Below are positions 17,873 to 46,438 of a stretch of DNA of 54,354 bases, one piece after another. The DNA comes from an uncultured Candidatus Sumerlaeota bacterium (GTDB lineage: Bacteria > Sumerlaeota > Sumerlaeia > SLMS01 > JAHLLQ01): positions 1-54,354 of the forward strand of contig CAZVAQ010000004.1 in NCBI GenBank assembly GCA_964625145.1. The letters are read 5' to 3'. The notes beneath the pieces were generated by a model. The model had not been told where the DNA came from and did no database searches. It saw only the letters and a program-made list of their open reading frames with translations. Each line of letters begins with the position of its first letter. Position 1 is the first letter of the stretch. Position numbers and translations under genes: made by a program.

Positions 17873-18559
17873 CTAGCCGTTATTGGTGCCGATGTCCTCG
17901 GCGCTCAGATTTGTCCGGATGATCTGTCCAAGTGATATGGTCCCATTGCTGGGATCGTAGACGGTGATACCTTCAGCACCCAAAAAGCGGTGATCTGTTA
18001 CATCTGGACCGACCGAATTGAGCGCCCACGCGATCGTTCCCGTATTTGAGGTGAATCTTGCCCAATTCGTGTCGCGGTCCAATCCGGCTGTTAGACTGGC
18101 AAGATCCCTGTTGAGTGCCGCATAGTCGAATGTTATGGGATTGATGATGGCACCAGACGCGACTGCCCCCTCCCTGTACGCGACAGTCCCCGCCATTCCA
18201 CCACGAGCCAATGGGATAGCAAATGAGTCCTCCGGCAACGCCGAGAGGTGTGCTACCGGGGTTGTCAAGTACTTGAGTCGGCCGACAAACGTCTGAAGGT
18301 GTTCCTTGCGAGCAATTCGATCTATATAATAGTGGCTGTAGTCCGGTGGATAGCGGTTATTGTCGACGGAGTAGGACTCCAACGCTGTTGCGACCGTCCG
18401 CATGTCGCCTTTCGTCCGCGAGACCTTTGCCCGAATCTGTGCCTCCAGGAAATTCGGCACGGCGATGGCCGCGAGGATGGCGATGATGGCCACAACAATC
18501 AGCAGCTCGATCAGCGTGAAGGCACGTGGTGTGTCTGTGTTGGGGGTGCACTGTCTCAT
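17873..18559 (-). CDS. prepilin-type N-terminal cleavage/methylation domain protein (T2SS GspG-like / type IV pilin-like)
   Basis: Track ORF 17873..18742; preferred start ATG 18559. MRQCTPNTDTPRA|FTLIELLIVVAIIAILAAIAVPNF is a class III signal peptide with Glu at +5. C-terminal ...VYDPSNGTISLGQIIR. Confidence 0.8.
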   Translation of the reverse strand: MRQCTPNTDTPRAFTLIELLIVVAIIAILAAIAVPNFLEAQIRAKVSRTKGDMRTVATALESYSVDNNRYPPDYSHYYIDRIARKEHLQTFVGRLKYLTTPVAHLSALPEDSFAIPLARGGMAGTVAYREGAVASGAIINPITFDYAALNRDLASLTAGLDRDTNWARFTSNTGTIAWALNSVGPDVTDHRFLGAEGITVYDPSNGTISLGQIIRTNLSAEDIGTNNG

Positions 18560-24344: not shown

Positions 24345-25052
24345 ATGAAGAGGCACTACGCGGTTCCCAAAGCTGCGTTCTCCCTGCTGGAAGTCCTGAT
24401 CGCTTCAACCATTCTGGCCATCGTTTTGTTGGGTGCCATAACGGGCCTGTTGTTCGTGTCGCGCATGTCGTTGGCGGCACAGCAGGACCTGATGGCCATG
24501 GAAGTGCTGGAGCGCGAGTCCGAGCTGATTCGCGCCGCTCCCAATTATCGCGCGCTTGGCGATCCGGACATGGCGGTCGCTCACCCAACCAATCCTGTCT
24601 ACACGGATCAGTCATTCACGATCCGACGCGAACGCGTCTATGATCCGCAGTTTCCTGATTCCGCCCCTACCTTTACATTGGACTACACATGGTATGGATT
24701 CGGGGAGGCCACCGGAGGTTCGAGCGACTCGTTGGATTTTGACCAGGACGACTGGCCAGAGGGTGTGGACATGACGGGCCGGTACGTGATCCTGCGCGAA
24801 GGGACCGGGGCGGGCCAGATGGCACGAATCACCGACCATACGCCGGGGCGTTTCGAGCTGGATGCGGCATTCAACGGCTACGGCATTTCAAACCTGTTGG
24901 TCGCGCCCGCAAGCGGCACCCGGTTCGAGGTGGATGGTGGCAAGTGGGTCCGGGTCACTGCGCGTTGGCGGCCGACGCCCAACGACAGGGAACGTGTGGC
25001 CGAGCGCGTCCTGTTTGTCAGCAATCGCGCCGCCGGGGGAGCGGGATCATGA
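24345..25052 (+). CDS. minor pseudopilin-like protein A (GspI/H-like N-terminus)
   Basis: 235-aa ORF. MKRHYAVPKAA|FSLLEVLIASTILAIVLLGAI is a class III signal-like leader with Glu at +5. The rest has no recognised domain. Confidence 0.6.
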   Translation: MKRHYAVPKAAFSLLEVLIASTILAIVLLGAITGLLFVSRMSLAAQQDLMAMEVLERESELIRAAPNYRALGDPDMAVAHPTNPVYTDQSFTIRRERVYDPQFPDSAPTFTLDYTWYGFGEATGGSSDSLDFDQDDWPEGVDMTGRYVILREGTGAGQMARITDHTPGRFELDAAFNGYGISNLLVAPASGTRFEVDGGKWVRVTARWRPTPNDRERVAERVLFVSNRAAGGAGS

Positions 25053-25714
25053 AAAGCTTAGGCAATGGTTCCCTCCTTCGCAATGCAACACATTGGCGCC
25101 GTGGTGCGACGCTGGTGGAGCTGGCCATCGCGGCGTCCCTTTTCGTTGGTGTCTCCGCCGTGGTGATGAGCCTGTTCCTGACGATGCTGCAGGAAGAGAG
25201 ATCCAACACGACGCGTCTGAACATGACGCACGAGGTGTCCTCCCTGCATCGCCGGTTGCGGGAAATTGCCGCCAATGGCGCGAACATCGCCGTGGCAAAC
25301 GGCGAACTGAACAACGACGTGGTTCTCTTCCGGCGGTTGAATGACGACAGCGAAACGCCGGTCTTTTCCGAGTTGAGGTATATTGACGAGGACGACGACA
25401 ACGACACGATCGGGGACAACTTCATCGTGTTCCTGCCGGACCGCGAGGACGAGGGCAACCAGCAGGTTATCGTGCGTCTGGTGTCGCGGATTCCCGACGT
25501 GACCAGCCCGGGGGGATTCCGCCCGGTGTTCACGCGCAGCCCGGGGTTTGGTGCGCCGCTGGTCGTGCAGTTTCGAGTGGGAGACCGCTCCGCGGTGCGC
25601 CAATCGCGCGCGGAACGAGCCGCGGATGACGAAGACCGTCGTGACGATGCCTTCACCGGCAAGGGATATCAGGGGATCGTCTTTCAGTCGGCCTACGGAC
25701 CGCGAAACGGATAA
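25049..25714 (+). CDS. minor pseudopilin-like protein B (GspJ/TadE-like N-terminus)
   Basis: Track ORF 24944..25714. Preferred start ATG 25049 overlaps gene A's stop (ATGA). ...THWRRG|ATLVELAIAASLFVGVSAVV with Glu at +5. Acidic C-terminal half. Confidence 0.55.
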   Translation: MKSLGNGSLLRNATHWRRGATLVELAIAASLFVGVSAVVMSLFLTMLQEERSNTTRLNMTHEVSSLHRRLREIAANGANIAVANGELNNDVVLFRRLNDDSETPVFSELRYIDEDDDNDTIGDNFIVFLPDREDEGNQQVIVRLVSRIPDVTSPGGFRPVFTRSPGFGAPLVVQFRVGDRSAVRQSRAERAADDEDRRDDAFTGKGYQGIVFQSAYGPRNG

Positions 25715-25783
25715 CATCATCAGGGAGGCCTGGCAGTTCCGGTAGCAACGCAGCAAACGATACCGATTCCCCCGGAGCGGAAA

Positions 25784-28081
25784 ATGAAGCAAGGATTCAG
25801 GAAGACAATCGGAAGAAGGCGCGGCGCATCCGCGCTGGTCAGCGTGTTGGTGTTCACGTCGCTGGTGCTGTTCGCCATCGTGTCGACGGCGGCTTATGCA
25901 CTTCAACGACGCATGGAGACGGTGCGCCTGACTCTTCACGGCGCGGAGCTGGCCGCGGCGGAGAATGCGCTGGAACGTTCGTACGCGCTGTTGTACTTCG
26001 CCTCGCAGCGCCGCCCTTCACAGGTGCGCCTGGGCAATGGCATCGAGGGCTTCGTCGCCGAGGTCGTGGAGCGCGGCGGTGACTTGGGAGCCCCGGAAGT
26101 CAACGAAGGTTTCCAGATCGAGGTCATCGCCGTGCCGCTCCCCGGCTACACGGACGAGGATGGCAAGGGGAAGATCGTCCTGATCAACCAGGAGGCCATC
26201 AACGACCTCGGGATGGAGCTGGAGCCCTGGCGGGATTTCATGATGCAGATCAGCGGGTTTCAGGTGATCGCAGGCGCCCGCGCGCGCGACGTGCGGACGG
26301 CAGATGGCGAGTCGGCATTTCCATTCCAGAACTTCCTCACCCGGCCGGGGGTCTACGCCTCCAAGAACCTGGTGCAGTACAACGTGCCACTGCTGAACTA
26401 CGCCATCTTCTATGAGAACCAATTCGAGCTCGACGCCGGGGAGCGCATCGACATCCGCGGCAAGGTGCATACAAACTCGGATTGGTTCCTTACCACGTCG
26501 AGCAGTGCTTACTACCACGACTACATCACCGTCGCGGGGAACCTGTACGGCGGCGTGTATCACTACGGCGACCATTCACGCCGTTCGTGGTCCGGGAGCA
26601 AGGAAGTGTACATCGCGGACCAACGCATCGCCTCCGCCAGCTCCCCCACCGTGAAGCTGCACAGCAGCAGCCGCTCGTACAACGAAGGGTGGCTGAGCTC
26701 GGTCTTGTACAACAATCGCTCCGGCGGAGCGCCCAGGCTCAACGTGGACGGAACGCCCGATTGGTCCCCGAATCCGAACTGGGTGGACGAATCCATCGCA
26801 CTGTTCAAGGGCTACCTCAAGGACAGCTCGCACGGTGTGTTGCCGGTCAAGCTACCGCTCGACGAGCAGAAGACGCCGCGCCTGTTGATCGAGTCCCCAC
26901 TGCCGCCCGTTGGAACGGCGGCGAACCCGGAGGACATGCTCAACGACAGCAAGATGAACGTGAACCTCGCTTACAAGGCCGGTCTCATCATCGAGACGAA
27001 GCCGGGCTTTGCGACCGCGTCGAGTGCAAACTGGCCGAACTATGTGGAAGCCTATCGCTGGAAGAGCGAAGGCATCGATCCGGAGACGGGTCTTGAGATC
27101 CGCGTGAAGGAACCGGTGAGCCTGAAGTACAAGCGCAAGAAGGCGAACGACCCAACGGTGATGGAGGAAGTGCTGCTCGTGGATCGCGTGACGATCTACA
27201 ACGGCCGCGAGGAGAAGAACGTCACCTTGGCCGACTTCAAGGCGGACCGCCTGGCCGAGTTCCTCAAGCTGCAACGCGAGTTCGAGGTTTCCTCCTCCCC
27301 CACAAAGGTCGACCCCAACGCGCAGCCGGGCCGCGACATTCCGTGGCTGAAGTCGCCAACGGGCAAGTCGGAGGACGACGGCATCGTCTTCTTCGACGTG
27401 TCCCAGTCGGGCCTGTCGTCCAACCAGCAGGTCGGCGCGCGCCTGAGCGAAATGAGCTACAAGAACCTGAATGATATCACGACCCTGGACGGCCGCACCG
27501 ACGCCGACAAGCGTGGCCTCGCCTTCGGGTCAAACGGCCCCATGTACACGCTGGGCCATGTGAACCATGATCCAAACAATTCGAACAACCGCATCCCGCT
27601 GATGATTGCGGGTGATGCGATCAACATCCTGTCTTCGAACTTCAAGGATAGCGAATACGCCTCGGGCAGCGGCGACGGCCCCAAAAAATCGGCAAAGCCA
27701 ACCACCACCAACGCGGTGTTCGTGTCGGGCAATGTCCCCTCCCGCAAGGGCCAGTACTCCGGCGGCGGCGAGAACTTCTTCCGCTACATCGAGGCCTGGG
27801 GCTCCAGCAACCCGCACACCTTCACGGGTTCGATGCTGAACCTGTACGAGAGCCAGGTCGCAATGGGCCCTTGGGACAAGGACCCTTCAACCACCGCGAA
27901 GAGCGGCTACTATTCCGCGCCGCGCCGCATTTGGGGATGGGACACACGGTTCTCCGACGCGGGCAATGCTCCTCCAGGAATTCCGACGAGCTACAACGTG
28001 AGTGTTGGCCGCTGGCAGTTGGTCACCCCGCAACACTTCATTGAGAACGGCGGCGACCCGGAGCTGACGCAGAATATCTGA
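25784..28081 (+). CDS. giant GspK/PilX-like pseudopilin-like protein C
   Basis: 765-aa ORF with GGAGCGG 4 nt before the ATG. MKQGFRKTIGRRRG|ASALVSVLVFTSLVLFAIV is a K/X-type leader without Glu at +5. No recognised domain in the remaining ~720 residues (contains ...GGGENFFRYIEAWG...). Confidence 0.55.
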   Translation: MKQGFRKTIGRRRGASALVSVLVFTSLVLFAIVSTAAYALQRRMETVRLTLHGAELAAAENALERSYALLYFASQRRPSQVRLGNGIEGFVAEVVERGGDLGAPEVNEGFQIEVIAVPLPGYTDEDGKGKIVLINQEAINDLGMELEPWRDFMMQISGFQVIAGARARDVRTADGESAFPFQNFLTRPGVYASKNLVQYNVPLLNYAIFYENQFELDAGERIDIRGKVHTNSDWFLTTSSSAYYHDYITVAGNLYGGVYHYGDHSRRSWSGSKEVYIADQRIASASSPTVKLHSSSRSYNEGWLSSVLYNNRSGGAPRLNVDGTPDWSPNPNWVDESIALFKGYLKDSSHGVLPVKLPLDEQKTPRLLIESPLPPVGTAANPEDMLNDSKMNVNLAYKAGLIIETKPGFATASSANWPNYVEAYRWKSEGIDPETGLEIRVKEPVSLKYKRKKANDPTVMEEVLLVDRVTIYNGREEKNVTLADFKADRLAEFLKLQREFEVSSSPTKVDPNAQPGRDIPWLKSPTGKSEDDGIVFFDVSQSGLSSNQQVGARLSEMSYKNLNDITTLDGRTDADKRGLAFGSNGPMYTLGHVNHDPNNSNNRIPLMIAGDAINILSSNFKDSEYASGSGDGPKKSAKPTTTNAVFVSGNVPSRKGQYSGGGENFFRYIEAWGSSNPHTFTGSMLNLYESQVAMGPWDKDPSTTAKSGYYSAPRRIWGWDTRFSDAGNAPPGIPTSYNVSVGRWQLVTPQHFIENGGDPELTQNI

Positions 28082-28226: not shown

Positions 28227-28252
28227 GCCCCCTCCGCGGATGCGGAGGGGGC
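28227..28252. terminator. strong hairpin between convergent genes (probable bidirectional terminator, weak U-tracts)
   Basis: GCCCCCTCCGC-ggat-GCGGAGGGGGC, a perfect 11-bp stem, flanked by CAAAGT and GCTTTGG. Confidence 0.45.
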
Positions 28253-28634: not shown

Positions 28635-31600
28635 GTGGTGCCCGCCGAGACTCCCATGCCCCATCGCCCCCTCACTCCGGCCGGTCTGCTTTTCCTCGCA
28701 GTGCTAGATTTCGCCCTCCTGGCGATCGCCTGGTGTGCGGCCTATCTGGCAGTGCTTGGCTTCACGATCCCGTCCGAGGCGGAGGCGGACTACGTCTCCC
28801 AACTCCTGATTCTGCTGCCTTGGGTGGCGCTGTCCGGGGCTGTCCTGCTGACGCTGGCCCGGACCCGCCGCTTTGGCCTCCCCCCATCGGCGGCCGCCAT
28901 CGGCCAGGTCCTGCTCCCAATCCTCGGAGTTTCCCTCATTTGGGGGGCGTTCGCTGCTTGGGTCAAAGGCCAGGAGATATTCCTGCAACTGCCGCTGAAC
29001 GAGACGGCGGAGTTGGTGCTGCCCCTCCCCGGGGGCGTCGTGGCCCTGTTCAGCTTGTTCGGGATCCTTTTGGTCGGGGCGGTTCGCGGGGCAGGGTACT
29101 TGACAGCCCCCAAGGGCCCCGCCCCCGGCGATGCGCAGCCCAGCCCCGCCGTGCTGGTGGGATCCGGGCCTCTGGCGCGGTTGGTTGCCTCGGATCTGGC
29201 GGGATTGGCCCGCCCTGCGTGGAGACTTCTGGCAGCGGTGTCCCCGGAGAGCGAACGCACCGGCGCGGCCGTCGCCGGGCTTCGAGTGGCGGGGCGGCTG
29301 GAAATGCTCCCTCAGATGCTGGGAGAGACATCCGCGACCGCGGTTCTGGTTGTTCAGGACGAACATGAGCCCGCCCTGTTGCGGGAAGTCGTGCGGCGTT
29401 GCGAGGACTTCCCGGTGCGGCTGCTCATGGCCGAGCCGACGGCGGCCTCCTCGGCCGATTTGCGGCCCGTCCGCCTGCAGGACCTGATCGCCCGCAGACC
29501 GGTTGCCCTCCATGCGCCTGCCGAGCGGGGACCGTTCCGCGGCGAGCGCCTCCTGATCACCAATGCGGACACGCCCGCCGGGTTGGAGTTCGCCTGGCAG
29601 GCCGCCCGCGGCTTCCCGGCACTTATGATCCTGCACGGATCTTCCGAGGATGCGCTCGCCCGGTGTGCGCTGCGAATTCGGCGAGAACATCCCAGCCTGC
29701 CGGTGGAGACTGTCCTGGCGGGAATACAGGATCCGGATTCGTTCGATGCGGCGGTTCGCCCCTTGGAGCCTACCGCCCTCATCCATGCGTTCCCGCTGCA
29801 CCGCGTTGATTATGCCGAGCGCTTCCCGGCACATGCCATCGAGCTGACCGTTCTGGGCACGGCGACGGTGGCGGAGTTGGCGCGCGACTTGAAGTTTCAC
29901 CGCACGGTTTTCCTCTCCAGCGTGAAGGCGGTCTATCCGGTCGGCGTGCTGGGTGCGTGCCTGCGCTTGACCGAGCAGATCGCGTGGCGCTTGGGGCGCG
30001 ATGTGGAGCACTCGGTCCAGGTGGTGCGGCTCCCCACGTTGGTGGGAGGGGGATTTTCGGCGCTTGAAGTTTTTGAAGACCAGGCACGCAACGGCAAGAG
30101 CCTGACTATTTCGCATCCCGATGCCACGCGGTTGTATCTGGGAGTCGAGGAGGCCGTTGATCGCGCGCTGCAGGCCCTGAGCGCTCACGCCGGCAACGGG
30201 CGGTTGTTCCTGGTGGATCCGGGCGATCCGGTGCGCGTCGCGGATCTGGCGCGCGCCGCGGCCAGCCTGGCTGGCAAGCGCCCCGGCAAGGACCTGACGA
30301 TCACCTATACCGGCATAGGGCCCGGCGAAAAGCTGCGCGAGGAGATCTCCACGCGGGGCGAGGAGTTGCTACCGACGGAAGTCAGCGGTGTGCTGATGGT
30401 GCAGCCGCGAGAGGTTCCCGACCGCGATCGCTTGTTCGATGGCATGGCAGGATTGGGCGAGATGATCCCCCACGCCAGCCGCGAGGAGTTGCTGCTGGCG
30501 CTGCGGGAATTGGTCCCGGAATTCCACCCGGCTGACTTGCCGGAGCGCGAGGACTCCGAGGCCTTTCTGTCCGACAAGTTCTCCCCTGCCGGGACGGAGC
30601 AAGCGACAGCCGAATCCGACGATCAGGATTGGCCGGGCGAGATGGAGCCCAGCGAGCAGGAAGCTCCGGACTTCGAACATTATGAAGCGGAGGCAGACGA
30701 ATCCGCGAATCAACCGGGGATCGAAACACAATCGGACATCGAGGATGAAGAGCTGGAGCCGTTGGCACTGGGGCAGGCAAGCGATCAGGAAGAACGGCCG
30801 CTGAAGATCACACGTCGGCCGGTCATCTTCATGGATCTGGAGGAAGGGCAGGCTGCAGAAGAAGGGGCCGCGAAAGAGGAAGCGGGCGAGGAGATCCTCG
30901 AGGAATCTCACTCTCCCGAACTGGAGCCGGAGGAGGCGGTGCAGCCCTTGACATCCTCACCGGCGGCGACCGAAGAACACGCCCCCGGAATGGAGACTTC
31001 CTCCGCCGCGGTGCCGGAGACGGAACAAGAGTTCCTGTTTCCGGATTGGCTGCTGGAAGATGACGTCACTCCGGCTGCGCCAGACTCAGCAACTCCGGAG
31101 CCCGTCGACCAGGAAAAGTCCCCCGATCTTGTGGAGTCATCCACACCATCATCCCCCCAGAAGGAAGATCAAATGAACGAGCAGTTTGCCGAGCTGAAGT
31201 CCCGTGGAAAGCTGGAAGTCAAGCCCTTGTCGCCACTTCCCGCAGAGGCTGACATCGTCCTGCTTGTCTTCATGGAGGGTCTGAGCGCCGCGCGTCAGCG
31301 CGAAGTGCTGGAGCATGCGGAAGAGCGCTTCCCGGACGATATCCACTTCCTTTTCGCCGGCCTGCATCCCGACGCGCCGATTCCTGCCTCGTTGGACGAA
31401 CGCGCCCGCGGGCTGGATCCGTCGATCCCTGCGGGGGCAAAGCTGTGGAACGCGGCCCTGGAGGCATCACCGGAGAACGCGCTGCTGTTGTCCTTCCCGC
31501 CGCGCGTGGAATTCCACGCGGGCTTCTTCAAGACGCTGCGCGATTTTGCGGCGCAACACCGTGAGTCGGTGCTCTTCTACGCCGATCACATCGAGCGGAA

Positions 31601-32741
31601 GGGCGACAAGGAAACCGAGGTCCGCGTGCATGACCACAACGGCTGCCCGCACGAGCGATTCGAGTTCGGCCCCGTGATCATCTATCGCACGGCGGCATTG
31701 AATGCCATCGGCGGGTTTGACGAATCGCTGGTGCATGCATGGGAGTACGATGCGCACCTGAAGCTGATGGTGGAGGGTTACTTCACGCGCATCCCCGGCC
31801 CGCTGTACACGGCCAATGAAGAGGTGGTCGACTCCCAGTCCTCCGCCTTGCACTCGCCGGGACGCGGACCATTGGGCGGCTTCTCCTATGTGTTCTATCC
31901 GGAGGAGATGGATCGCGAAGTGACCAAGGTTTTCGAGCGCGCCTTGCGCAAGGTCGGCGCGTGGATTAACCACGACACGGTTCCCGTGCCCCAGCCCGCG
32001 ACCAAGCCGGAAGTCATGGCCTCCGTTGTGATCCCGGTCCTGAACCGTGTGAAGTATATCGGCAACGCGATCGACAAGGTCCGGGAGGGGACGTTCCAGG
32101 ACTTCGAGGTGATCGTCGTGGACAACGGCTCCACCGATGGAACGTGGGAGCTGCTCGAGGAGTACACGAAGCGTGATCCTCGGATCCGATTGCTCCGCGG
32201 CAAGGGGAGCACGATCGCGTCGGCGTTGAACGAGGCCATCCGCGCCTCACGCGGGAAGTACATCTGCCAGCTCGACAGCGACGACCAGTACGCCCCCACC
32301 ACGCTGGAGAAGATGATCGGCCACTTGGAATCGCACCCCAAGTGCGGGCTGGCCATCAGCTACTACCGGTTGATGGACGAAACAGGCAAGGTCATCGATG
32401 ATGTGGCACCAATCACGCACTCGGGTTACTCGCGGAACCAGATCCTGCGGCGTGACGGTGCCGGTGCGGTCCGGATCTTCCCCAAATCGGTCCTTGAGGA
32501 GTTCGGACTGTACGATGAGGAACACTACGGCAACTTCGGCGAGGACTATGACATGGTCCTCAAGACCGGCGAGAAGTACGATGTGGACCTGGTGCACGAG
32601 GTGCTGTACTTCTATCGCCGTCACTCGGACAACACCGATGTGATCCGGGATCCGGAGATGAAGTATCACAACAAGAACCGGGCGCGACAGATGGCGCTGC
32701 GGCGGCGGATGAAGATCAATGAGGAACTCGGCAAGCTCTGA
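28635..32741 (+). CDS. multidomain membrane protein: TM region + degenerate CapD/PglF/WbpM-like domain + acidic linker + divergent GT-A-like region + family-2 glycosyltransferase
   Basis: 1368-aa ORF (GTG 28635; ATG 28656 is an alternative start). N-terminal hydrophobic helices. The Polysacc_synt_2-like region is recognisable from RPVRLQDLIARRPV...GPGEKLREE. A Glu/Asp/Pro-rich linker spans about 30540-31180. C-terminal GT2 domain: VVIPVLNRVKYIGNAI...EVIVVDNGSTDGT...ICQLDSDDQY. Confidence 0.75.
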   Translation: MVPAETPMPHRPLTPAGLLFLAVLDFALLAIAWCAAYLAVLGFTIPSEAEADYVSQLLILLPWVALSGAVLLTLARTRRFGLPPSAAAIGQVLLPILGVSLIWGAFAAWVKGQEIFLQLPLNETAELVLPLPGGVVALFSLFGILLVGAVRGAGYLTAPKGPAPGDAQPSPAVLVGSGPLARLVASDLAGLARPAWRLLAAVSPESERTGAAVAGLRVAGRLEMLPQMLGETSATAVLVVQDEHEPALLREVVRRCEDFPVRLLMAEPTAASSADLRPVRLQDLIARRPVALHAPAERGPFRGERLLITNADTPAGLEFAWQAARGFPALMILHGSSEDALARCALRIRREHPSLPVETVLAGIQDPDSFDAAVRPLEPTALIHAFPLHRVDYAERFPAHAIELTVLGTATVAELARDLKFHRTVFLSSVKAVYPVGVLGACLRLTEQIAWRLGRDVEHSVQVVRLPTLVGGGFSALEVFEDQARNGKSLTISHPDATRLYLGVEEAVDRALQALSAHAGNGRLFLVDPGDPVRVADLARAAASLAGKRPGKDLTITYTGIGPGEKLREEISTRGEELLPTEVSGVLMVQPREVPDRDRLFDGMAGLGEMIPHASREELLLALRELVPEFHPADLPEREDSEAFLSDKFSPAGTEQATAESDDQDWPGEMEPSEQEAPDFEHYEAEADESANQPGIETQSDIEDEELEPLALGQASDQEERPLKITRRPVIFMDLEEGQAAEEGAAKEEAGEEILEESHSPELEPEEAVQPLTSSPAATEEHAPGMETSSAAVPETEQEFLFPDWLLEDDVTPAAPDSATPEPVDQEKSPDLVESSTPSSPQKEDQMNEQFAELKSRGKLEVKPLSPLPAEADIVLLVFMEGLSAARQREVLEHAEERFPDDIHFLFAGLHPDAPIPASLDERARGLDPSIPAGAKLWNAALEASPENALLLSFPPRVEFHAGFFKTLRDFAAQHRESVLFYADHIERKGDKETEVRVHDHNGCPHERFEFGPVIIYRTAALNAIGGFDESLVHAWEYDAHLKLMVEGYFTRIPGPLYTANEEVVDSQSSALHSPGRGPLGGFSYVFYPEEMDREVTKVFERALRKVGAWINHDTVPVPQPATKPEVMASVVIPVLNRVKYIGNAIDKVREGTFQDFEVIVVDNGSTDGTWELLEEYTKRDPRIRLLRGKGSTIASALNEAIRASRGKYICQLDSDDQYAPTTLEKMIGHLESHPKCGLAISYYRLMDETGKVIDDVAPITHSGYSRNQILRRDGAGAVRIFPKSVLEEFGLYDEEHYGNFGEDYDMVLKTGEKYDVDLVHEVLYFYRRHSDNTDVIRDPEMKYHNKNRARQMALRRRMKINEELGKL

Positions 32742-34092
32742 CAGACGCCTTCGGCGCATCCTGAGTTCGGCAGCCATGGCTCCAGTAGTCATGGCTGCCG
32801 TCATCTTTTGGAGCGGTTGTACGGATACCGGCGACGCATCGGCGTCGCTGACGCCCCATCGCGTCCGCCCCACCACGTTTGAGATCGCCCTGGAGGAAGC
32901 GGGGACGGTCGAGGCCACGCGCGTCATCTCCATCACGGCCCCCGAATCGGCGCGACTGATCTTCCTGCCGGACACGGGAGCCATGGTGAAAACCGGTGAG
33001 GTGATTGCCCAACTGGAGACACAGCAGGCCGAGGAGACTCTCCAACAGCGCCTGAACGAGTTGCAGTCGGTGAAGGCCGACCTGGAAGCGACGATCGAGT
33101 CCCTTCAGGTGGCATTGCGCGAGAACACGCTCAACCGCGACCTGGCCCAATCGGAACTGGAGTTCAGCACATTGCGGCTTCAGGACGTGAAGGTGCGGCT
33201 AGCGGAGACGGAGGTCCTGCTGGAAAGTGCCGTCGTCCCCGAGGATGATGTGCGGACTGCGCAATACAATGTGGATTCGACACGGCTTAGCACTGTGACG
33301 ACGGACCTGTCACTGCGCTCGCAGGTGGCCACCAATGTCCAGGGGCGGGCGGAGTGGATGTCAAACATCGCCCGCAATGAATTGCGCGGCAGGCGGGCCC
33401 TGCGCGTTCTGGGACAGGCCCAGCGCGAGATTGAGCAGGCCACGATCCGATCTCCAATCGATGGCATTTTCATCCGCGCCCGTTATTGGGACCATCGGCA
33501 ACGCGCCATGGCAGAGCCACGCCCGGGCGAGGACATTCGCAGGGGCCAGGCACTGGGCACCATACCGGATCTCAACTCGTTGGTGGTGAGGACCCAGATT
33601 CCCGAGTCGTATCTCCTGCGCGTGCAGCCGGGCACACGGGCGGTGGTGGAGTTTGATGCCCATGACGATCTGGCATTGGAGGGTCAGGTGGTCTCCATCG
33701 GCAATGTCGCCATCGACCGGGAATCGAGTGCCGGCGGTGCCATCATCCAGACAGAGAGTTACTCCGGCCAGAAGGTCTTTGAGGTCCTGATCAAGTTCGA
33801 TGATGTGGATACCCGCCTGCGGCCCGGCATTACGGCGCAGGTGCGAATCCTCCTCGATAGCCGCAAGGGGGTGCTCACGATTCCCGTCGAGGCCATCGTG
33901 CCCGACGAGAAGGTATCGAGCGTCCTTGTCATGGATTCCAACAACAAGCCTCAGCTTCGGCAGATCAAGGTGGGTGACCACAATGGCTCCGAAGTGATCG
34001 TGCTGGAGGGGCTGAATGCCGGGGAGATAGTGGGAGTTCGGGGGTCGGCCAACAGGGATCAGGCTTCCGCGGGAAGACGAAGAAGCGGCTGA
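32719..34092 (+). CDS. HlyD-family membrane-fusion (periplasmic adaptor) lipoprotein, paralog 1
   Basis: 457-aa ORF that overlaps the giant gene's 3' end by 23 nt. Lipobox-like AAVIFWSGC. Lipoyl-like hairpin, long coiled coil, beta-barrel segment (IRSPIDGIF...) and membrane-proximal domain typical of adaptors. Confidence 0.75.
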   Translation: MRNSASSDRRLRRILSSAAMAPVVMAAVIFWSGCTDTGDASASLTPHRVRPTTFEIALEEAGTVEATRVISITAPESARLIFLPDTGAMVKTGEVIAQLETQQAEETLQQRLNELQSVKADLEATIESLQVALRENTLNRDLAQSELEFSTLRLQDVKVRLAETEVLLESAVVPEDDVRTAQYNVDSTRLSTVTTDLSLRSQVATNVQGRAEWMSNIARNELRGRRALRVLGQAQREIEQATIRSPIDGIFIRARYWDHRQRAMAEPRPGEDIRRGQALGTIPDLNSLVVRTQIPESYLLRVQPGTRAVVEFDAHDDLALEGQVVSIGNVAIDRESSAGGAIIQTESYSGQKVFEVLIKFDDVDTRLRPGITAQVRILLDSRKGVLTIPVEAIVPDEKVSSVLVMDSNNKPQLRQIKVGDHNGSEVIVLEGLNAGEIVGVRGSANRDQASAGRRRSG

Positions 34093-34295
34093 GCCTTGGG
34101 GGGGCAGATTGACCTGGCCTCTTGCCACGGCAATTGATGCGCGCCGCCTATTCCCCTAGGGGGGGTGAGGCGGCGCGAACTATGCATGGAGGTGTGTGGT
34201 GGGGAACGGTGCCACGGCACCGCGATTCCCTTTGCTTCCGGCAGATGGGAAATCACCTTTTGAAGCCAGCATTTTAGCCACGGGCCTTTCATATC

Positions 34296-35654
34296 ATGAC
34301 ACAACGGTACCATTCAACTTCCGATCCTGACCGGCGGTCGGTGCTGCGCCCCTTGGCGCACCTTGCCACAGCGGTGTGTGTCGTATTGGCCCTGTGGGGG
34401 TGCTCCAACCAAGCGGATCCCGCGGCGCAGTATGATCGCCTTGTTGTGAGGAAGGGTACCTTTGAGGTTACCCTGGAAGAGGCCGGGACGGTGCAGGCCA
34501 CGCGGGTGGAATCGATCATCCTGCCCATGAGTGGCCGCCTGATCTATCTTCCCTCCACGGGGACGCCGGTGAAGCAGGGTGATATCATCGTTCAATTGGA
34601 GACGCAGCAGGCGGAGGAGACTCTGGAGCAGCGGCTTAATGAGCTCAAGTCGCTGGAGGCCGAGCTTCAGTCCACGATCGAATCGCTGCAGGTGGCGCTC
34701 CGCGAGAACACGCTGAACCGCGATCTGGCGGAATCGGAGCTGGAGTTTAGTACCCTGCGCCTTCAGGACGTGAAGGTGCGTTTGGCGGAGACAGAGGTGC
34801 TACTCGAGCGTGCCGTGGTTCCCGAGGACGACCTGCGCGAGGCGTCGTACAATGTGGATTCCACGCGCATGAGCACTGTGACGACGGATCTGGCTCTTCG
34901 CTCGCAGATTGCAACCGGAGTGCAGGAGCGTTCCGACCGCATGTCGGCGATCAGCCGTGCGGAATTGCAGGGGCGGCGGGCATTGAGGTTTCTTCTGCGG
35001 GCTCAGGATGACCTGCAACAGGCAACGATCCGGGCACCGATCAATGGGATATTCCTGCGCACGAGCCGATGGGATTGGCAGTCGCGGAGCATGCGCGAAC
35101 CGCAGCCGGGTGAGGAAGTGCTGCGCCGGCAGGAAGTCGGGCAGATTCCCGATCTGGACTCTTTGATCGTCAGGACCCAAATTCCGGAATCGTACCTGTT
35201 GCGGGTGAGCAAAGGCAAGCCGGCCACGGTGAGTTTTGATGCGCACGATGGATTGCACAGCACTGGCGTGGTGAAGTCGATCGGCAATGTCGCGATCAAC
35301 CGTGAGGAAAGTGCCGGTGGCGCCATCGTTCAGACCGACCAGGCTTCCGGCCAGAAGGTCTTTGAAGTGGAGGTCGCCCTGGATGAAGTGGATCCACGCC
35401 TGCGCCCGGGGATCACCGCCCAGGTGAAATTCGTGCTTGAGAGACACGAGGATGTCATAACAGTTCCCATCCGGGCCGTGAGGACCGATGGGGCGGATTC
35501 TCGAGTGGCGGTCCTGAGGCCCGACGGCAAGGTCGAGCAACGGACGGTGACGCTCGGCATGCACAACGAAATGGATGTCATCGTGCTGGATGGGCTTTCA
35601 GCGGGCGAGGTCGTGGGCTTGCCCCGGCAGTTGATCGGAAATCCTTCCACCTAG
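34296..35654 (+). CDS. HlyD-family membrane-fusion (periplasmic adaptor) lipoprotein, paralog 2
   Basis: 452-aa ORF with lipobox-like VLALWGC. Collinear with paralog 1 and near-identical through the coiled coil (QLETQQAEETL.QRLNEL...TIESLQVALRENTLNRDLA.SELEFSTLRLQDVKVRLAETEVLLE.AVVPEDD). Confidence 0.75.
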   Translation: MTQRYHSTSDPDRRSVLRPLAHLATAVCVVLALWGCSNQADPAAQYDRLVVRKGTFEVTLEEAGTVQATRVESIILPMSGRLIYLPSTGTPVKQGDIIVQLETQQAEETLEQRLNELKSLEAELQSTIESLQVALRENTLNRDLAESELEFSTLRLQDVKVRLAETEVLLERAVVPEDDLREASYNVDSTRMSTVTTDLALRSQIATGVQERSDRMSAISRAELQGRRALRFLLRAQDDLQQATIRAPINGIFLRTSRWDWQSRSMREPQPGEEVLRRQEVGQIPDLDSLIVRTQIPESYLLRVSKGKPATVSFDAHDGLHSTGVVKSIGNVAINREESAGGAIVQTDQASGQKVFEVEVALDEVDPRLRPGITAQVKFVLERHEDVITVPIRAVRTDGADSRVAVLRPDGKVEQRTVTLGMHNEMDVIVLDGLSAGEVVGLPRQLIGNPST

Positions 35655-43471: not shown

Positions 43472-43770
43472 AGTAGGGGAAGGGATGAAAAAAATCGTTC
43501 AATAACCTCGGCGCGAGATGGACCGGATGTGCCTAGAAGCCTGTCAGGGCACGACTTTGAGAGTTTTTTTGGGGCTCTGGCGAGGCTTCCAGATTCCCCT
43601 TGCCCCAGATTTGCATCATTGATTTTATTGAATTTAGGTTCAGTCATGCATCCTTTTGACACTGGAAGAAAACCCTTGAACGCCGTGGCGCCACTGGGCT
43701 ACTCCACGCGTCATGCACAGGGGGCCCACCGGCCCGTGTACCAAGACGACTTCCGATCGGATTTTTGCCG

Positions 43771-45243
43771 ATGCAAGCCTTGAAGCAGGAGTTCTGGGAC
43801 CGCGTCCTCGATGCCCTGCGCGAACGCGTCAGCGCAGATGAATTCCGCGCATGGATAGCGCCCATCCAGCTCGAAGATCTGGATGAGGAATCCGGGAGTG
43901 TGATCCTCTCGGTGTCCAGCGAGTTCTACCAACGTTGGATCTCGCGCAAGTACATGACGCAGATTGAGGAATGCCTGGCCGATGTGCAGGCCAATGAGTG
44001 GCACCCGCAGGTCATCGTACGCGGTGAACTGGACGGAGTGGATGAGGAGGAAGTTTTCGACACGCCCGCGCCCGTGGTGAATCAACCGCGGCAATGGCAA
44101 ATGCCCACGGAGGGCGCGGATTCCGCGCCTCCGGAGGCGATTCCGTTCACACGCCGCACGCGCATTGCGACGCCGCCGCGCGCCAACAGCTCGCCGGTGG
44201 AAGAACTGCGGCCGCGCCTGAATCCTCGCTACACGTTCGATGATTTTGTGGTGGGCGAAAGCAACCGCTACGCGCACGCCGCGGCGCACTCGGTGGCGGA
44301 CCCGGCATCGAGTGCCTTCAATCCGCTCTTCCTCTATGGCCCGTCGGGCTTGGGCAAGACCCACCTGATGCAGGCCATCGGGCACGAGTACCTCAAGCGC
44401 AAGCCGAACTCGCTGGTGCTGTACGTGACCTCCGAGCAGTTCGTGAACAGCTTCATCGAAAGCATCCAGAACAAGCGCTCCTTTGACTTCCGGAACCAGT
44501 ATCGCAACGTCGATCTGCTCCTGCTGGATGATGTGCAGTTCCTGATGGGGAAGGAGAGGACCCAGCACGAAGTTTTCCACACCTTTAATGCGCTTTTTGA
44601 TGCAGGCAAGAAGATCGTGCTGACCAGCGACCGGCCACCGAAGGACCTGGCCACACTGGAAGACCGCCTGCGGTCGCGGTTTGAGTGGGGCGTCATCGCC
44701 GACATCCAGCCCCCGGACCTGGAAACGCGCATCGCCATCCTGCACAAGAAGGCCCGGCAGGAGGGATTGGTCCTGCCCACAGAGGTGCTGTCCTACATCG
44801 CCGAGTGGGTGAAGACCAACATCCGCGAGCTGGAAGGGGCCCTGAAGCGGATCAAGGTCTACGCGAGCCTGCACAACCGGCCGATCACGCTGGAGGTGAC
44901 CCGCGAGGTCCTCAGCCACCTGATCGTCGGTCAGCCCCAGAGCCGCATCACCATCGAGGACATCCAGCGGGCCGTGTGCGAGTACTTTGAGATCAGCGCG
45001 GCGAACCTGCTGGGGTCGAATCGCTCGAAGAAGTTCAGCCAACCGCGCCATCTGGCGTTGTACCTGTGCCGCGAGTTGACCGATTTGAGCTTTCCGGACA
45101 TCGCCCAGAAGTTTGGCGGCAAGGACCATACCTCGGTGATCTACGCCTGCCGCAAGATCAAGAAGGCCGTCTCCGACGACCCGAACATGGCGAGCATCGT
45201 GCAGTACCTGTCCAAGCAGATCCAGACGGGCCAGGCTGCCTGA
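43771..45243 (+). CDS. dnaA: chromosomal replication initiator protein DnaA
   Basis: AAA+ Walker A GPSGLGKTHL, Walker B LLLDDVQF, SDRPPKDL, sensor IRELEGAL, and domain IV ...RHLALYLCRELT...GGKDHTSVIYACRKI. ATG 43771 preferred over track TTG 43765. Confidence 0.9.
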   Translation: MQALKQEFWDRVLDALRERVSADEFRAWIAPIQLEDLDEESGSVILSVSSEFYQRWISRKYMTQIEECLADVQANEWHPQVIVRGELDGVDEEEVFDTPAPVVNQPRQWQMPTEGADSAPPEAIPFTRRTRIATPPRANSSPVEELRPRLNPRYTFDDFVVGESNRYAHAAAHSVADPASSAFNPLFLYGPSGLGKTHLMQAIGHEYLKRKPNSLVLYVTSEQFVNSFIESIQNKRSFDFRNQYRNVDLLLLDDVQFLMGKERTQHEVFHTFNALFDAGKKIVLTSDRPPKDLATLEDRLRSRFEWGVIADIQPPDLETRIAILHKKARQEGLVLPTEVLSYIAEWVKTNIRELEGALKRIKVYASLHNRPITLEVTREVLSHLIVGQPQSRITIEDIQRAVCEYFEISAANLLGSNRSKKFSQPRHLALYLCRELTDLSFPDIAQKFGGKDHTSVIYACRKIKKAVSDDPNMASIVQYLSKQIQTGQAA

Positions 45244-45270
45244 AGCAGCTTTGCCCGCGCCTTGAGCTTC

Positions 45271-45314
45271 GACCGCCCGCTAACCAATCGGTTCAGCGGG
45301 CGGTCCTCCGTTTT
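45271..45314 (+). terminator. rho-independent terminator after dnaA
   Basis: GACCGCCCGCT (45271-45281) pairs with AGCGGGCGGTC (45295-45305), followed by CTCCGTTTT. Confidence 0.55.
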
Positions 45315-45351
45315 GGGCTCTGTGCCCAAATCCACGACGGAGGCAAATGCC

Positions 45352-45789
45352 ATGAGGATTCAGGCAAGGACTCGGAGGGGCCGACGCGCATTCACGTTTC
45401 TGGAGATCATGTTTGTGGTGGTGATCATTGGGATTCTGATGGGGGTGGCGGTGTCGCGCTACGTGGGCAAGACGACTGACAGCCGCATCAAGTCGACCCA
45501 AATGCAGATGGAGCAGGTGCACTCGTCGCTGGCGATGTTCGAGATGCACGTCGGCCGGTTCCCGGACACGCGGGAGGGACTGCAGGCGCTGCTGGTGAAG
45601 CCATCGAACGTGCCCGATCAGGTATGGGAGGGCCCGTACCTGACTCTGCGGGGAGAGGCGGAGCAGGTGAAGGATGTCTGGGGCAATCCGCTGGCGTATC
45701 GCGCGCCGGGAGAGAAGAATCGCGATTATGACCTGTGGAGCTGGGGACCCGACGGGCGCGACGGGACCGAGGACGACATCACAGGCTGA
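45352..45789 (+). CDS. gspG: type II secretion major pseudopilin GspG-like, paralog 1
   Basis: Track ORF 45262..45789; preferred start ATG 45352, after GGAGGC. RRA|FTFLEIMFVVVIIGILMGVAV (Glu at +5), ...MFEMHVGRFPDTREGLQALLVKP...WEGPYL...DVWGNPLAYRAPGEKNRDYDLWSWGPDGRDGTEDDI. Confidence 0.8.
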   Translation: MRIQARTRRGRRAFTFLEIMFVVVIIGILMGVAVSRYVGKTTDSRIKSTQMQMEQVHSSLAMFEMHVGRFPDTREGLQALLVKPSNVPDQVWEGPYLTLRGEAEQVKDVWGNPLAYRAPGEKNRDYDLWSWGPDGRDGTEDDITG

Positions 45790-45979
45790 TCGGCGCCACG
45801 GGCGGGTGGTTTGTGCTTGCCGGTCGCCGTGGTTCCGGAGGAATCTGGGGCGTTGGCCACAAACCCCGCAGGGAGTTGTGCGGTCGGGTTTGTCGGCAGG
45901 GGGATTTTATCCCCCGATAGTAAGTTTCCCTCCGGGCGGCGCGAACTGCCGCGATCCGGAACCTCAAGAGGATGGCATC

Positions 45980-46438
45980 ATGAAGAGACTTAATGGCACC
46001 TGCCGGGATCGGCGTTCACTTCGGGCGTTCACCTTCCTGGAGATCATGTTTGTGGTCGTGATCATCGGGATCCTGCTGGCGGTCGCCTTGCCGCGATTCT
46101 CCGGCCAGACAAACCAGGCGCGCATGCAGGCCACGCGTTTGCAGATGGGAAATATCCGCACGGCCCTGTCGCAGTTTGAAATGCACGTGGGACGGTTTCC
46201 GGACACGCGCGAGGGGCTGCAGGCGCTGGTTGTTCGCCCGAGCAATGTTTCCGAGCAGCTCTGGGAAGGGCCGTATCTGGACGCGGAGGGCGGGCAGCTC
46301 CCGACAGATGCGTGGAAGAACCCGTTCAATTACCGGTCTCCCGGCGAACACAACAAGGACTATGACCTGTGGAGTGCGGGGCCCGACGGCCGCGAGGGAA
46401 CCGAGGATGACATCACCAATTGGGGCAGCAACAAGTAG
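45980..46438 (+). CDS. gspG: type II secretion major pseudopilin GspG-like, paralog 2
   Basis: Track ORF 45674..46438; preferred start ATG 45980. LRA|FTFLEIMFVVVIIGILLAVALPRF, ...FEMHVGRFPDTREGLQALVVRP...WEGPYL...DAWKNPFNYRSPGEHNKDYDLWSAGPDGREGTEDDITNW. Confidence 0.8.
   Translation: MKRLNGTCRDRRSLRAFTFLEIMFVVVIIGILLAVALPRFSGQTNQARMQATRLQMGNIRTALSQFEMHVGRFPDTREGLQALVVRPSNVSEQLWEGPYLDAEGGQLPTDAWKNPFNYRSPGEHNKDYDLWSAGPDGREGTEDDITNWGSNK

Follow-up and report, generated by a model that had tools for sequence, protein, structure and literature searches.

The window analysed here, a stretch of 54,354 nucleotides from an uncultured Candidatus Sumerlaeota bacterium, contains three consecutive open reading frames on the same strand, which we refer to as A, B and C.

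24345-25052, forward strand: gene A, 235 aa, prepilin-type minor pilin, candidate for the PilV/GspI position
25049-25714, forward strand: gene B, 221 aa, prepilin-type minor pilin, candidate for the PilW/GspJ position
25784-28081, forward strand: gene C, 765 aa, putative cap pilin lacking Glu5, PilX/GspK position, with a predicted large beta-rich insertion of the ComZ/HpsA type

The start of B (ATG 25049) overlaps the stop of A in an ATGA at 25049-25052, and a gap of 69 nt separates B from C, whose ATG is preceded by a GGAG (all read from the sequence). The GC3 values are 0.72 for A, 0.75 for B and 0.84 for C, and the codon-position GC is typical for coding sequence.

The N-termini are as quoted in an earlier note on this DNA, which had also placed the genes at these coordinates. 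Protein A begins with MKRHYAVPKAA/FSLLEVLIAS (the slash stands for the presumed cleavage site) and B with ...HWRRG/ATLVELAIAAS, both with Glu at +5; C has a basic leader, ...GRRRGA/SALVSV..., and no Glu at +5. The pattern extends to each family: Glu5 is invariant in A (E16, 11/11 sequences) and in B (E24, 11/11), and it is missing from each of the 16 parsable N-termini of the C family and from all 128 representatives of the C superfamily. The residue at -1 is Ala, not Gly, in A and C, so that cleavage of their leaders is assumed; the canonical G/xTLxE motif is found in orthologues from other Sumerlaeota. The predicted structures of B and C start with unbroken helices of 65 and 62 residues, respectively, which are pilin-like and unlike a Sec signal peptide; for these two, this speaks against the possibility, named in the earlier note itself, that the leaders are ordinary Sec signals. 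A tip complex would be expected to have this arrangement, two genes with Glu5 followed by a cap without it; the Sumerlaeota module has no fourth, GspH/FimT-type adaptor gene.

Families and predicted folds of the three proteins

The profile searches suggested in the earlier note give a positive answer for A, which passes Pfam N_methyl (25.6 bits versus a cut-off of 21.2, E 8.6e-6) and TIGR02532 (above cut-off), and a negative one for B and C, since neither passes any curated model in Pfam or NCBIfam. A also has a weak PilV N-terminal match (6e-4), and its top hhalign match is a PilV-position family (probability 96.6, columns 1-62), a signal that disappears when the first 30 aa are removed; a profile search of the PDB returns matches to pilin N-terminal helices only. 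For B, the top match among the T, V and W classes is a PilW-position family (probability 92.5, helix only). The AF2 model of B (pLDDT 71.5) has a helix at residues 11-75 followed by beta strands, and no significant fold match in the PDB. The identification of A as GspI and B as GspJ is therefore tentative, the matches to the PilV and PilW positions coming from the alpha1 helix.

The sequence of C can be divided as follows (forward strand throughout).

25784..26011: residues 1-76, basic leader and long alpha1 helix (15-76), no Glu at +5
26384..26578: residues 201-265, conserved block 1, ...PLLNYAIFYEN.FELDAG.RIDIRGKVHTN.DWFLTTS...
26579..27583: residues 266-600, variable, indel-rich middle, with a predicted beta-hairpin-rich subdomain at about 401-486
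27584..27988: residues 601-735, conserved block 2, ...TTTNAVFVSGNVPS...QYSGGGENFFRYIEAWG...HTF.GSMLNLYES...WDK...YY.APRR.WGWD...PPGIP

In the family alignment, blocks 1 and 2 have 33.8 and 26.2 invariant positions per 100 aa, and the gap-rich middle about 5; the latter is probably the distal, exposed part of the protein. In the AF2 model of C (pLDDT 80, pTM 0.78), the 62-residue helix is followed by mostly beta structure, and block 1 corresponds to the first short beta strands past the predicted pilin sheet. The only significant Foldseek matches in the PDB are two chains of ComZ, 6qvi_A (3.3e-6, probability 0.98) and 6qvi_B (5.6e-5), the next match having an E value of 0.7. The global TM-scores are low (0.20 and 0.27): what the structures share is topology and local structure, and they do not superpose as rigid bodies. 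Similarity to a pseudopilin fold, which the earlier note proposed to look for, is thus predicted for C and is not found for the model of B.

ComZ is the tip of the competence pilus of Thermus thermophilus, where it occurs with PilA1-3 (PDB 6QVI; Salleh et al. 2019, PMC6561018). This tip pilin has a beta-solenoid inserted in a GspK-like pilin fold and binds its neighbour, the GspI-like PilA2; its authors found its pilin domain to be closest to GspK (PMC6561018). C resembles ComZ in being a large cap pilin without Glu5 encoded next to minor pilins and, according to the model, in having a pilin domain of the GspK kind in which a large beta-rich domain precedes the last pilin strand. On the other hand, no sequence similarity is detectable between them, C exceeds ComZ by about 250 residues and has an additional variable region in its middle, the companion pilins are three in Thermus and two here, and ComZ binds DNA.

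Sequence homology connects C to a different group, the HpsA-like proteins of cyanobacteria. C matches part of the HpsA model of the hps locus (NCBIfam NF038301, IPR049774; E 1.5e-17, profile positions 1333-1440, in block 2), but its 62.6 bits are far short of the cut-off of 400, and it does not qualify as an HpsA equivalog. In BLASTP, two collinear blocks are homologous to a Chamaesiphon HpsA-like protein, block 1 to its residues 246-318 (E 1e-9) and block 2 to residues 920-1096 (E 7e-6), and the block-1 equivalent of an acidobacterial homologue of C (L019) matches HpsA profile positions 285-324. On this sequence evidence, blocks 201-265 and 601-735 are both homologous to HpsA-like proteins, whose N-terminus is also of the Glu5-less PilX type. 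According to a 2026 preprint, HpsA is PilX_EPS, the cap in a priming complex made of FimT, PilW, PilV and PilX, and cyanobacterial PilX/HpsA are cap pilins with a large inserted beta-solenoid (bioRxiv 10.64898/2026.02.12.705559). Pseudopilin genes adjoin C, and glycosyltransferase genes are adjacent in the window, as in hps loci. The differences are that C is half the size of HpsA or less (765 aa versus a 1503-position profile), that A and B have no match to HpsB, HpsC or HpsD models at E<=1, that the gene order is not the same, the cap standing behind the pilin genes, and that the phylum is another one.

As for the GspK/PilX character that the earlier note had attributed to C, it agrees with the predicted ComZ-like fold and the lack of Glu5, but not with the sequence models, since C matches neither GspK (T2SSK), PilX, PilX_N nor TadG, nor any other curated pilin model.

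Conservation and genomic setting

The A-B-C block is intact in at least ten independent Sumerlaeota/BRC1 contigs, a pattern far beyond chance, and the synteny survey proposed in the earlier note therefore confirms that the genes are conserved together; the close relatives all belong to Candidatus Sumerlaeota/BRC1, however, and not to the PVC genomes that it named. The flanking genes are usually unrelated and differ between contigs: guanylate kinase and MacB in L052, GH31 in L053, a methyltransferase in L056, a GT2 gene upstream of the trio in L057. The exception is the closest relative, L055, where C is followed by the same large gene as in the window, which encodes a 1368-aa Polysacc_synt_2 and GT2 protein (a CapD-like/GT2 fusion, 28635-32741, directly after C). 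Two HlyD-like genes lie downstream of it in the window (32719-35654).

The superfamily of C comprises about 3,300 clusters, for none of which a name was found in the sources searched. Its distant members in Acidobacteria occupy the PilX slot of operons with the order GspH/FimT-like, PilV, PilW-position, X. In Pyrinomonadaceae, for instance, the C homologue lies in one operon behind genes of the GspH-like (6.8e-7) and PilV (4.6e-11) types and the gene for a 352-aa prepilin. Two to three prepilin genes precede the homologue in most acidobacterial and myxococcal loci, and in Gemmatimonadota a homologue lies amid pilin genes, with a T2SSF/PilC platform gene at a distance of 6.6 kb.

The two gspG paralogs and the pilin-like gene that the earlier note had seen in the window are confirmed by profile matches.

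17873-18559, reverse strand: PilA-like prepilin, 228 aa, ...TPRA/FTLIELLIVVAIIAIL, candidate major subunit outside the operon
45352-45789 and 45980-46438, forward strand: two tandem GspG-type pseudopilin genes, alternative candidate major subunits

The first matches Pfam N_methyl (2.5e-7) and, below cut-off, the NCBIfam models for the Myxococcus PilA N-terminus (8.9e-17) and GspG (1.8e-13). The paralogs match Pfam T2SSG (2.5e-25 and 5.3e-31) and TIGR01710 (110 and 130 bits versus a cut-off of 88.85). Neither a Pfam search of the large GC3-selected open reading frames nor a six-frame motif scan of the whole window reveals an assembly ATPase, a platform protein, a secretin or a prepilin peptidase. 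The earlier note was right about this absence, but the "orphan" appearance that it deduced is a consequence of the limits of the window, which spans only 54 kb. It is common for minor-pilin operons to be unlinked from the genes of the motor. Fang et al. 2021 (PMC8092238) report type IV pilus twitching genes for every Sumerlaeota MAG in their analysis.

A probable minor-pilin tip complex and its alternatives

We propose, with a probability of roughly 70%, that A-B-C is a self-contained Sumerlaeota minor-pilin operon whose most likely product is the complex that primes a type IV filament and forms its tip; the filament itself is probably a type IVa pilus. A parallel in organization is FimU-PilV-PilW-PilX-PilY1 of the type IVa pili of Pseudomonas and Myxococcus, also a stand-alone minor-pilin operon unlinked to motor genes, with the same V-W-X order and a bulky distal element potentially involved in plugging, priming and adhesion; the distant C homologues take the place of PilX. 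Here, there is neither a FimU/FimT-type gene nor a separate PilY1 gene, the bulky element being part of the cap pilin itself, and Pfam PilX and PilX_N do not match. The Verru_Chthon cassette proteins A-D (TIGR02596-02600) likewise combine a multi-gene pseudopilin-like set with one large protein in non-proteobacterial phyla. At their N-termini, the acidobacterial companion pilins weakly match proteins B, C and D of the cassette; the A, B and C of the window have no match to the cassette models at E<=1.

By analogy with GspI-J-K, PilV-W-X and ComZ-PilA2, the three proteins would enter the inner membrane via class III signal anchors, and a prepilin peptidase encoded elsewhere would cut off their short basic leaders. 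Glu5 of A and B would bond the N-terminus of the subunit above, and C, as the cap, may lack Glu5 because no subunit lies above it. The trimer would nucleate the polymerisation of the major pilin on the platform protein, and remain at the distal end of the fibre. In the model, C has a pilin domain like that of GspK/PilX and, after the predicted pilin sheet, a beta-rich module of about 540 residues; the order of the secondary-structure elements suggests that the module is inserted before the last pilin strand, which would fit the ComZ arrangement. The conserved blocks may form the base of the module, near the pilin domain and the partners, and the variable middle an exposed surface that acts as an adhesin or a ligand receptor, and possibly as the "plug", a role filled by PilY1 in Proteobacteria.

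It may instead be that the trio is the GspI-J-K equivalent of a type II secretion pseudopilus built from the GspG paralogs, whose large cap would touch the secretin or the cargo in the periplasm; we consider this unlikely. Three consecutive genes in I-J-K order, with Glu5 in the first two only and a third protein that owes its greatest length among the three to an inserted domain, suit a T2SS equally well, both paralogs pass TIGR01710, and the pilin domain of ComZ is structurally nearest GspK (PMC6561018). However, no T2SSK, GspI or GspJ model matches, the insertion is alpha-helical in GspK and beta-rich in C, and the trio lies outside any gsp operon, with no adjacent GspH-type gene and no GspC, D, E, F, L or M near any inspected Sumerlaeota copy. 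GspG-model matches are also frequent among the pilins of non-proteobacterial phyla, the distant C homologues stand behind PilV-type genes, not inside gsp operons, and all the characterised relatives of C (ComZ, HpsA/PilX_EPS) act with type IV pili.

Less probable still is an Hps-like device for polysaccharide secretion or motility, in which the trio and the downstream polysaccharide genes would export or bind exopolysaccharide. Pseudopilin and glycosyltransferase genes do accompany hpsA in the hps loci of cyanobacteria (PMC4284469). C shares homology with HpsA-like proteins, and the Polysacc_synt_2/GT2 and HlyD-like genes after C, the same large gene in L055 and the upstream GT2 gene in L057 fit such a device; yet polysaccharide genes are missing beside the trio in L052, L053 and L056, A and B do not match the HpsB, HpsC or HpsD models at E<=1, and C scores far under the HpsA cut-off. 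This function would be compatible with a tip complex, since it would merely specify the ligand as self-made EPS. That the three are ordinary bitopic or Sec-secreted proteins with coincidental pilin-like N-termini is very improbable. The failure of B and C to pass any curated pilin model, the Ala at -1 in A and C, and globular parts of A and B unlike known pilins in sequence (and, for B, in fold) would be expected of such proteins, but not the invariance of Glu5 in two families and its absence across the third, the canonical motif in orthologues, alpha1 helices of more than 60 residues in the models of B and C, the ComZ match, and distant homologues within PilV-containing operons and near a T2SSF gene.

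Returning to the tip complex, the earlier description of an I/J/K-like triad with a giant K is essentially right, considering the N-termini, the gene order, the conservation as a unit and the predicted fold of C. To call it an undescribed pseudopilus variant was an overstatement, since caps with a large beta-solenoid insertion are known from Thermus (ComZ, 2019) and from cyanobacteria (PilX/HpsA). The oversized cap protein is real, but of a kind already described, and it does not make a new kind of machine; here it is found in the little-studied phylum Sumerlaeota.

The three genes, their leaders and their neighbourhood

The three adjacent prepilin-type genes that we call A, B and C are listed here with the other genes of the window that bear on them.

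Prepilin-type genes and their surroundings in the window
17873-18559, minus strand: PilA-like gene (confirmed)
24345-25052, plus strand: A, ORF of 235 aa
25049 (ATG)-25714, plus strand: B, ORF of 221 aa
25784-28081, plus strand: C, ORF of 765 aa
28635-32741, plus strand: CapD-like/GT2 fusion of 1368 aa, directly downstream of C
32719-34092 and 34296-35654: two HlyD-like paralogues, after the fusion
43765-45243: dnaA
45352-45789 and 45980-46438, plus strand: GspG-type pseudopilin genes (confirmed)

The three ORFs are exactly as the earlier note described them, in coordinates, strand, overlap, spacer and N-termini, and the two GspG-type genes and the pilin-like gene that it mentioned are real. 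As read from the sequence, the stop of A and the start of B overlap in ATGA, and 69 nt separate B from C, whose ATG is preceded by GGAG. The codon-position GC of the three genes is of the coding type (GC3 0.72-0.84). All three products begin with a class III leader, i.e. a short basic stretch with Gly or, rarely, Ala before the predicted cleavage site (position -1), and continue with a ~20-residue hydrophobic segment. The leader of B reads RRG↓ATLVEL and that of C RRRGA↓SALVSV, the consensus of the C family being RRG↓SALV (the arrow marks the predicted cleavage site); the -1 residue of A and C is Ala in the window and Gly in orthologues elsewhere. The Glu at +5 (Glu5) that is typical of polymerising subunits is present in A and B, as E16, invariant across 11 A-family sequences, and as E24, invariant across 11 B-family sequences, whereas it is absent from 16/16 parsable N-termini of the C family. 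The order A-B-C is kept across the inspected loci, so that C, which lacks Glu5 and is encoded last, after minor pilins that bear it, has the features of a cap, the top subunit of a filament tip (the GspK/PilX position).

Five of the six pilin-like proteins of the window have Ala rather than the canonical Gly at -1.

Window proteins with Ala at -1
24345-24410: A, PKAA↓F
25784-25850: C, RRRGA↓S
18480-18559, minus strand: PilA-like, TPRA↓F
45352-45420: GspG-like, RRA↓F
45980-46050: GspG-like, LRA↓F

The corresponding residue of B is Gly in the window and Ala in the orthologue from locus L055; in other Sumerlaeota (locus L003 was also compared), Gly prevails at -1. The prevalence of Ala in the window suggests, from sequence, that the prepilin peptidase of this lineage accepts or prefers Ala at this position.

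Neither Pfam searches of the large ORFs of the window selected by GC3, nor a six-frame motif scan of the whole window, detected an assembly ATPase, a platform protein, a secretin or a prepilin peptidase. The earlier note called the trio an orphan for this reason. Minor-pilin operons normally lie apart from motor genes, as does fimU-pilVWXY1E of P. aeruginosa, and the orphan status is therefore uninformative. It is also the case that type IV pilus twitching genes have been reported in all Sumerlaeota MAGs analysed (PMC8092238), which is the one general statement that we found in the literature on pili in this phylum.

The position of dnaA places the window near the replication origin; dnaA is followed directly, over 43765-46438, by the two tandem GspG-type genes and a GT2 gene, and this location of pseudopilin genes is unusual. 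Just after the trio, about 150 nt past the stop of C and before the gene at 28635, lies a perfect 11-bp GC-rich inverted repeat (GCCCCCTCCGC…GCGGAGGGGGC, 28227-28252), called on the minus strand by the scan, with a possible role as terminator or regulatory hairpin. In the 1368-aa fusion further downstream, an N-terminal membrane region precedes a Polysacc_synt_2 (CapD-like) domain (residues 307-589), which a long linker, acidic and of low complexity, connects to the C-terminal GT2 glycosyltransferase (1130-1245).

A word-indexed search with C returned 19 relatives, none of them named and one from Candidatus Sumerlaeota. A scan of one genome per species gave 51 loci, the 12 best of which all belong to Sumerlaeota/BRC1. 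Partial matches, to C residues ~201-747, came from Pyrinomonadaceae and other Acidobacteriota, Gemmatimonadota, Verrucomicrobiae, Myxococcota, Oligoflexia, Glassbacteria and the cyanobacterium Chamaesiphon. The earlier note had looked towards PVC genomes, but such an origin is rejected, every close relative of C being from Sumerlaeota/BRC1; the stretch itself most likely comes from Sumerlaeota.

Most of the Sumerlaeota loci with upstream sequence have two prepilin genes (~215 and ~190 aa) directly 5' of the C homologue, mostly with the canonical motif G↓xTLxE; in L003 and L004 the second one was identified by ORF listing. In the six gene-called contexts that were inspected (the window and five contigs), the trio is unbroken, so that the joint conservation on which the earlier note had made its reading depend is indeed found, and the flanks vary.

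Flanks of the trio in the five contigs
L052: guanylate kinase, MacB
L053: GH31
L056: methyltransferase
L057: esterases
L055: as in the window, with DinB, a 539-aa protein and EngB upstream and the large fusion gene downstream of C

L055, the closest relative (76% identity in C), is the only one that has the neighbours of the window. The public call of its C homologue (P0001, 4705-7092, 795 aa) begins 29 codons before the conserved MKQ start and overlaps B; its start annotation is probably over-extended. A protein with 100% identity to B (P0020) is present on JGI and Logan contigs, the longest of which reach 22 kb.

Family and fold of A, B and C

A scores above the cut-offs of Pfam N_methyl and TIGR02532, and matches PilV weakly and at its N-terminus (20.3 bits, for a cut-off of 52.2) and GspI with 11.7 bits. 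B has no significant curated family: neither the GspJ nor the PilW model matches, and the match to ComGE is weak (E 0.16). Among FimT-, PilV- and PilW-position pilin families taken from distant operons, hhalign finds A nearest to the PilV-position family (probability 96.6, 62 columns) and B nearest to the PilW-position family (92.5, 59 columns). When the first 30 residues are removed, all probabilities for the globular parts of A and B against these families fall to 3% or below, and profile searches of the PDB with A and B return pilin N-terminal helices only; beyond the shared N-terminal helix, membership of A in GspI/PilV and of B in GspJ/PilW was thus not found. Since the hhalign signal is lost without these 30 residues, it is mainly gene order and the Glu5 pattern that place A in the V/I position and B in the W/J position. 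The model of B (pLDDT 71.5) has a helix (11-75) followed by beta strands forming a sheet, and a Foldseek search of the PDB with it gives nothing significant (best E 0.8), which is why a GspJ/PilW fold for B was dropped. The GspI- and GspJ-like character that the earlier note gave to A and B may hold, judging by Glu5 and gene order; neither family models nor the predicted fold of B support it.

A and B have globular parts that are novel by sequence. The A family (24345-25052, alignment A2) shares a conserved signature in its globular part, …YDP…FT..Y.WYGFG…W…FEVDGGKW…, with no sequence match in Pfam, NCBIfam or the PDB. In size, A is roughly double a typical GspI/PilV core, and in this it is reminiscent of Thermus PilA2 with its extra subdomain.

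C matches no Pfam family at E<=1, hence neither T2SSK, PilX/PilX_N nor Tad (TadG), and has no GspK match in NCBIfam. More generally, in Pfam and NCBIfam, none of the GspK, PilX, TadE/G, HpsB-D and Verru_Chthon cassette models matches A, B or C at E<=1; of the profile searches proposed in the earlier note, N_methyl is passed by A, and no member of the trio passes the T2SS-I/J/K, PilX or TadE/G models. The C-family profile has no match among PDB sequences at E<=10. The NCBIfam HpsA model (NF038301) matches C partially (E 1.5e-17; C residues 636-721 to profile positions 1333-1440 of 1503), with 62.6 bits for a cut-off of 400 bits, which makes C, as judged from its sequence, a homologue of HpsA and not an HpsA equivalog. 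An 1110-aa HpsA-like protein from Chamaesiphon, whose N-terminus also lacks Glu5, can be aligned with C over residues 195-266 (E 1e-9) and 602-734 (E 7e-6), two blocks that come in the same order in both proteins. No other part of the C family is as conserved as these blocks: per 100 aa they have 34 and 26 invariant positions, other regions 3-5.

The AlphaFold2 model of C, obtained from an 18-sequence alignment, is usable (mean pLDDT 80, pTM 0.78). It has a continuous helix (15-76), four longer strands between 110 and 201, then many short strands, among them those of a hairpin-rich subdomain (~401-486), and a final strand (736-746). The only significant Foldseek matches in the PDB are two chains of ComZ, 6qvi_A (E 3.3e-6, probability 0.98) and 6qvi_B (E 5.6e-5); the alignment spans the whole protein, and the next PDB match has E 0.7. 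Since the global TM-scores are low (0.20 and 0.27), the predicted resemblance lies in topology and local structure rather than in a rigid-body fit. The Foldseek match and the order of secondary-structure elements, read with these low TM-scores in mind, are consistent with a beta-rich solenoid inserted before the last pilin strand of C. The ComZ of Thermus thermophilus, which like C lacks Glu5, is a tip-associated competence pilin that binds the neighbouring GspI-like pilin PilA2 (PMC6561018). In a preprint of February 2026, cyanobacterial PilX homologues are described as pilins interrupted by a triangular beta-solenoid, HpsA is put in a PilX_EPS subfamily, and the solenoid is proposed to replace the PilY1 plug at the tip of the FimT-PilW-PilV-PilX priming complex (bioRxiv 10.64898/2026.02.12.705559).

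The view that C is a giant Glu5-less cap within an I/J/K-like triad is thus largely right, given the Glu5 pattern, the gene order and the ComZ fold match. That the trio would be an undescribed variant does not hold: the class is known from ComZ (2019) and from cyanobacterial PilX/HpsA (2026), with the latter of which C shares sequence homology, and the trio is no new type of machine.

A large unnamed superfamily

An exhaustive search with the C-family profile found 3,310 representative clusters (50% identity) at E<=1e-3, of which 689 at E<=1e-30. An N-terminal hydrophobic helix is found in 128 of the 137 full-length representatives drawn from the best 150; it is preceded by basic residues in 118 of these 128, typically as RRG↓xAL…, and none of the 128 has Glu5. 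The public names of ten members say nothing beyond "hypothetical protein", and a Pfam scan of C and of its relatives from L019 and L034 gave no family above cut-off. The superfamily (P0035-P0177) shares the blocks …FYE..LEL…G.VHTN… and …GG.EN..RY.E.W…, and the two conserved blocks could be the starting point of a family model covering thousands of proteins that are now unannotated.

C homologues are encoded next to core minor pilins, as judged from sequence, in Sumerlaeota, Acidobacteria and Myxococcota. On a Pyrinomonadaceae chromosome (L019, 7101-12376), the C homologue (953 aa, EKG↓SALVIAIL) comes fourth in an operon whose first three genes encode a GspH/ComGD-like pilin (6.8e-7), PilV (4.6e-11) and a 352-aa prepilin, which is the classical FimT-V-W-X arrangement. 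Seven other loci (L015, L017, L018, L027, L037, L039 and L051) are similar, with a GspH-like gene, PilV, a 340-aa prepilin and a C homologue of ~800-950 aa; these acidobacterial loci are canonical minor-pilin operons of four genes in which the X subunit is giant and no PilY1 gene intervenes. In Gemmatimonadota (L034, 9464-19315, and L026), a C-like gene (647 aa) belongs to a larger cluster in which both strands carry prepilin genes, several in all; 6.6 kb from the C homologue lies a T2SSF/PilC platform gene (Pfam 9.1e-56), the sole physical linkage to machinery among the loci examined. A PilC/GspF motif match in Verrucomicrobiae (L014) was a false positive, the gene being a phosphoglucomutase. 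The gene contexts in Pyrinomonadaceae and Gemmatimonadota, together with the N-termini, tie the superfamily to type IV filament genes by position and sequence features.

The trio as a putative priming complex

The trio is likely to form the tip complex of a pilus. The boldest reading that fits the observations, to which we give a probability of about 0.3, goes further. The trio would be a minimal three-subunit priming complex that has neither a GspH/FimT adaptor nor PilY1, with new pilin-domain folds in A and B, and C would belong to a very large unnamed superfamily (~3,300 clusters at 50% identity) of solenoid cap pilins that plug the filament themselves, with members in Sumerlaeota, Acidobacteriota, Gemmatimonadota, Myxococcota, Verrucomicrobiota and Cyanobacteria.

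The GspG paralogs of the window make a T2SS pseudopilus tip an alternative, which we consider unlikely. An Hps-like role, linked to exopolysaccharide, is suggested by the CapD-like/GT2 fusion and the two HlyD-like genes that adjoin the trio, but this adjacency is not conserved: four of the six contexts have other flanks, so that a link to polysaccharide genes was rejected as a general feature. Such a role, which looks distinctly improbable to us, would in any case just specify the ligand. That the three proteins are not pilins at all is very unlikely.

The trio would work in a manner analogous to GspI-J-K, PilV-W-X and ComZ-PilA2. A prepilin peptidase encoded elsewhere would remove the leaders of A, B and C, and the processed proteins would form a helix-bundle trimer with C uppermost, which would prime the polymerisation of a major subunit, for which the PilA-like gene and the two GspG-like genes of the window are candidates. 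The base of the beta module in C, which would face the pilin domain and its partners, is probably built from the conserved blocks; the variable middle is probably the exposed distal surface (an adhesin, receptor or plug).

New here are the phylum, the compact format of three genes with none of the GspH/FimT type, the unassigned globular domains that A and B carry, and how large and phylogenetically broad the unannotated superfamily is, solenoid caps having so far been described just for Thermus and cyanobacteria. To our knowledge, no member of Sumerlaeota has been characterised experimentally, and the cell-surface biology of the phylum is drawn from genome annotation only. A likely pilus tip complex of Sumerlaeota can now be identified from three "hypothetical" genes, one of them encoding 765 aa, which gives a concrete handle on adhesion, motility or DNA uptake in this phylum. 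The class of solenoid-bearing cap pilins represented by ComZ and HpsA is extended well past Thermus and cyanobacteria and, if the boldest reading is true, type IV filaments that are capped without PilY1 would, outside Proteobacteria, be capped mainly by this superfamily.
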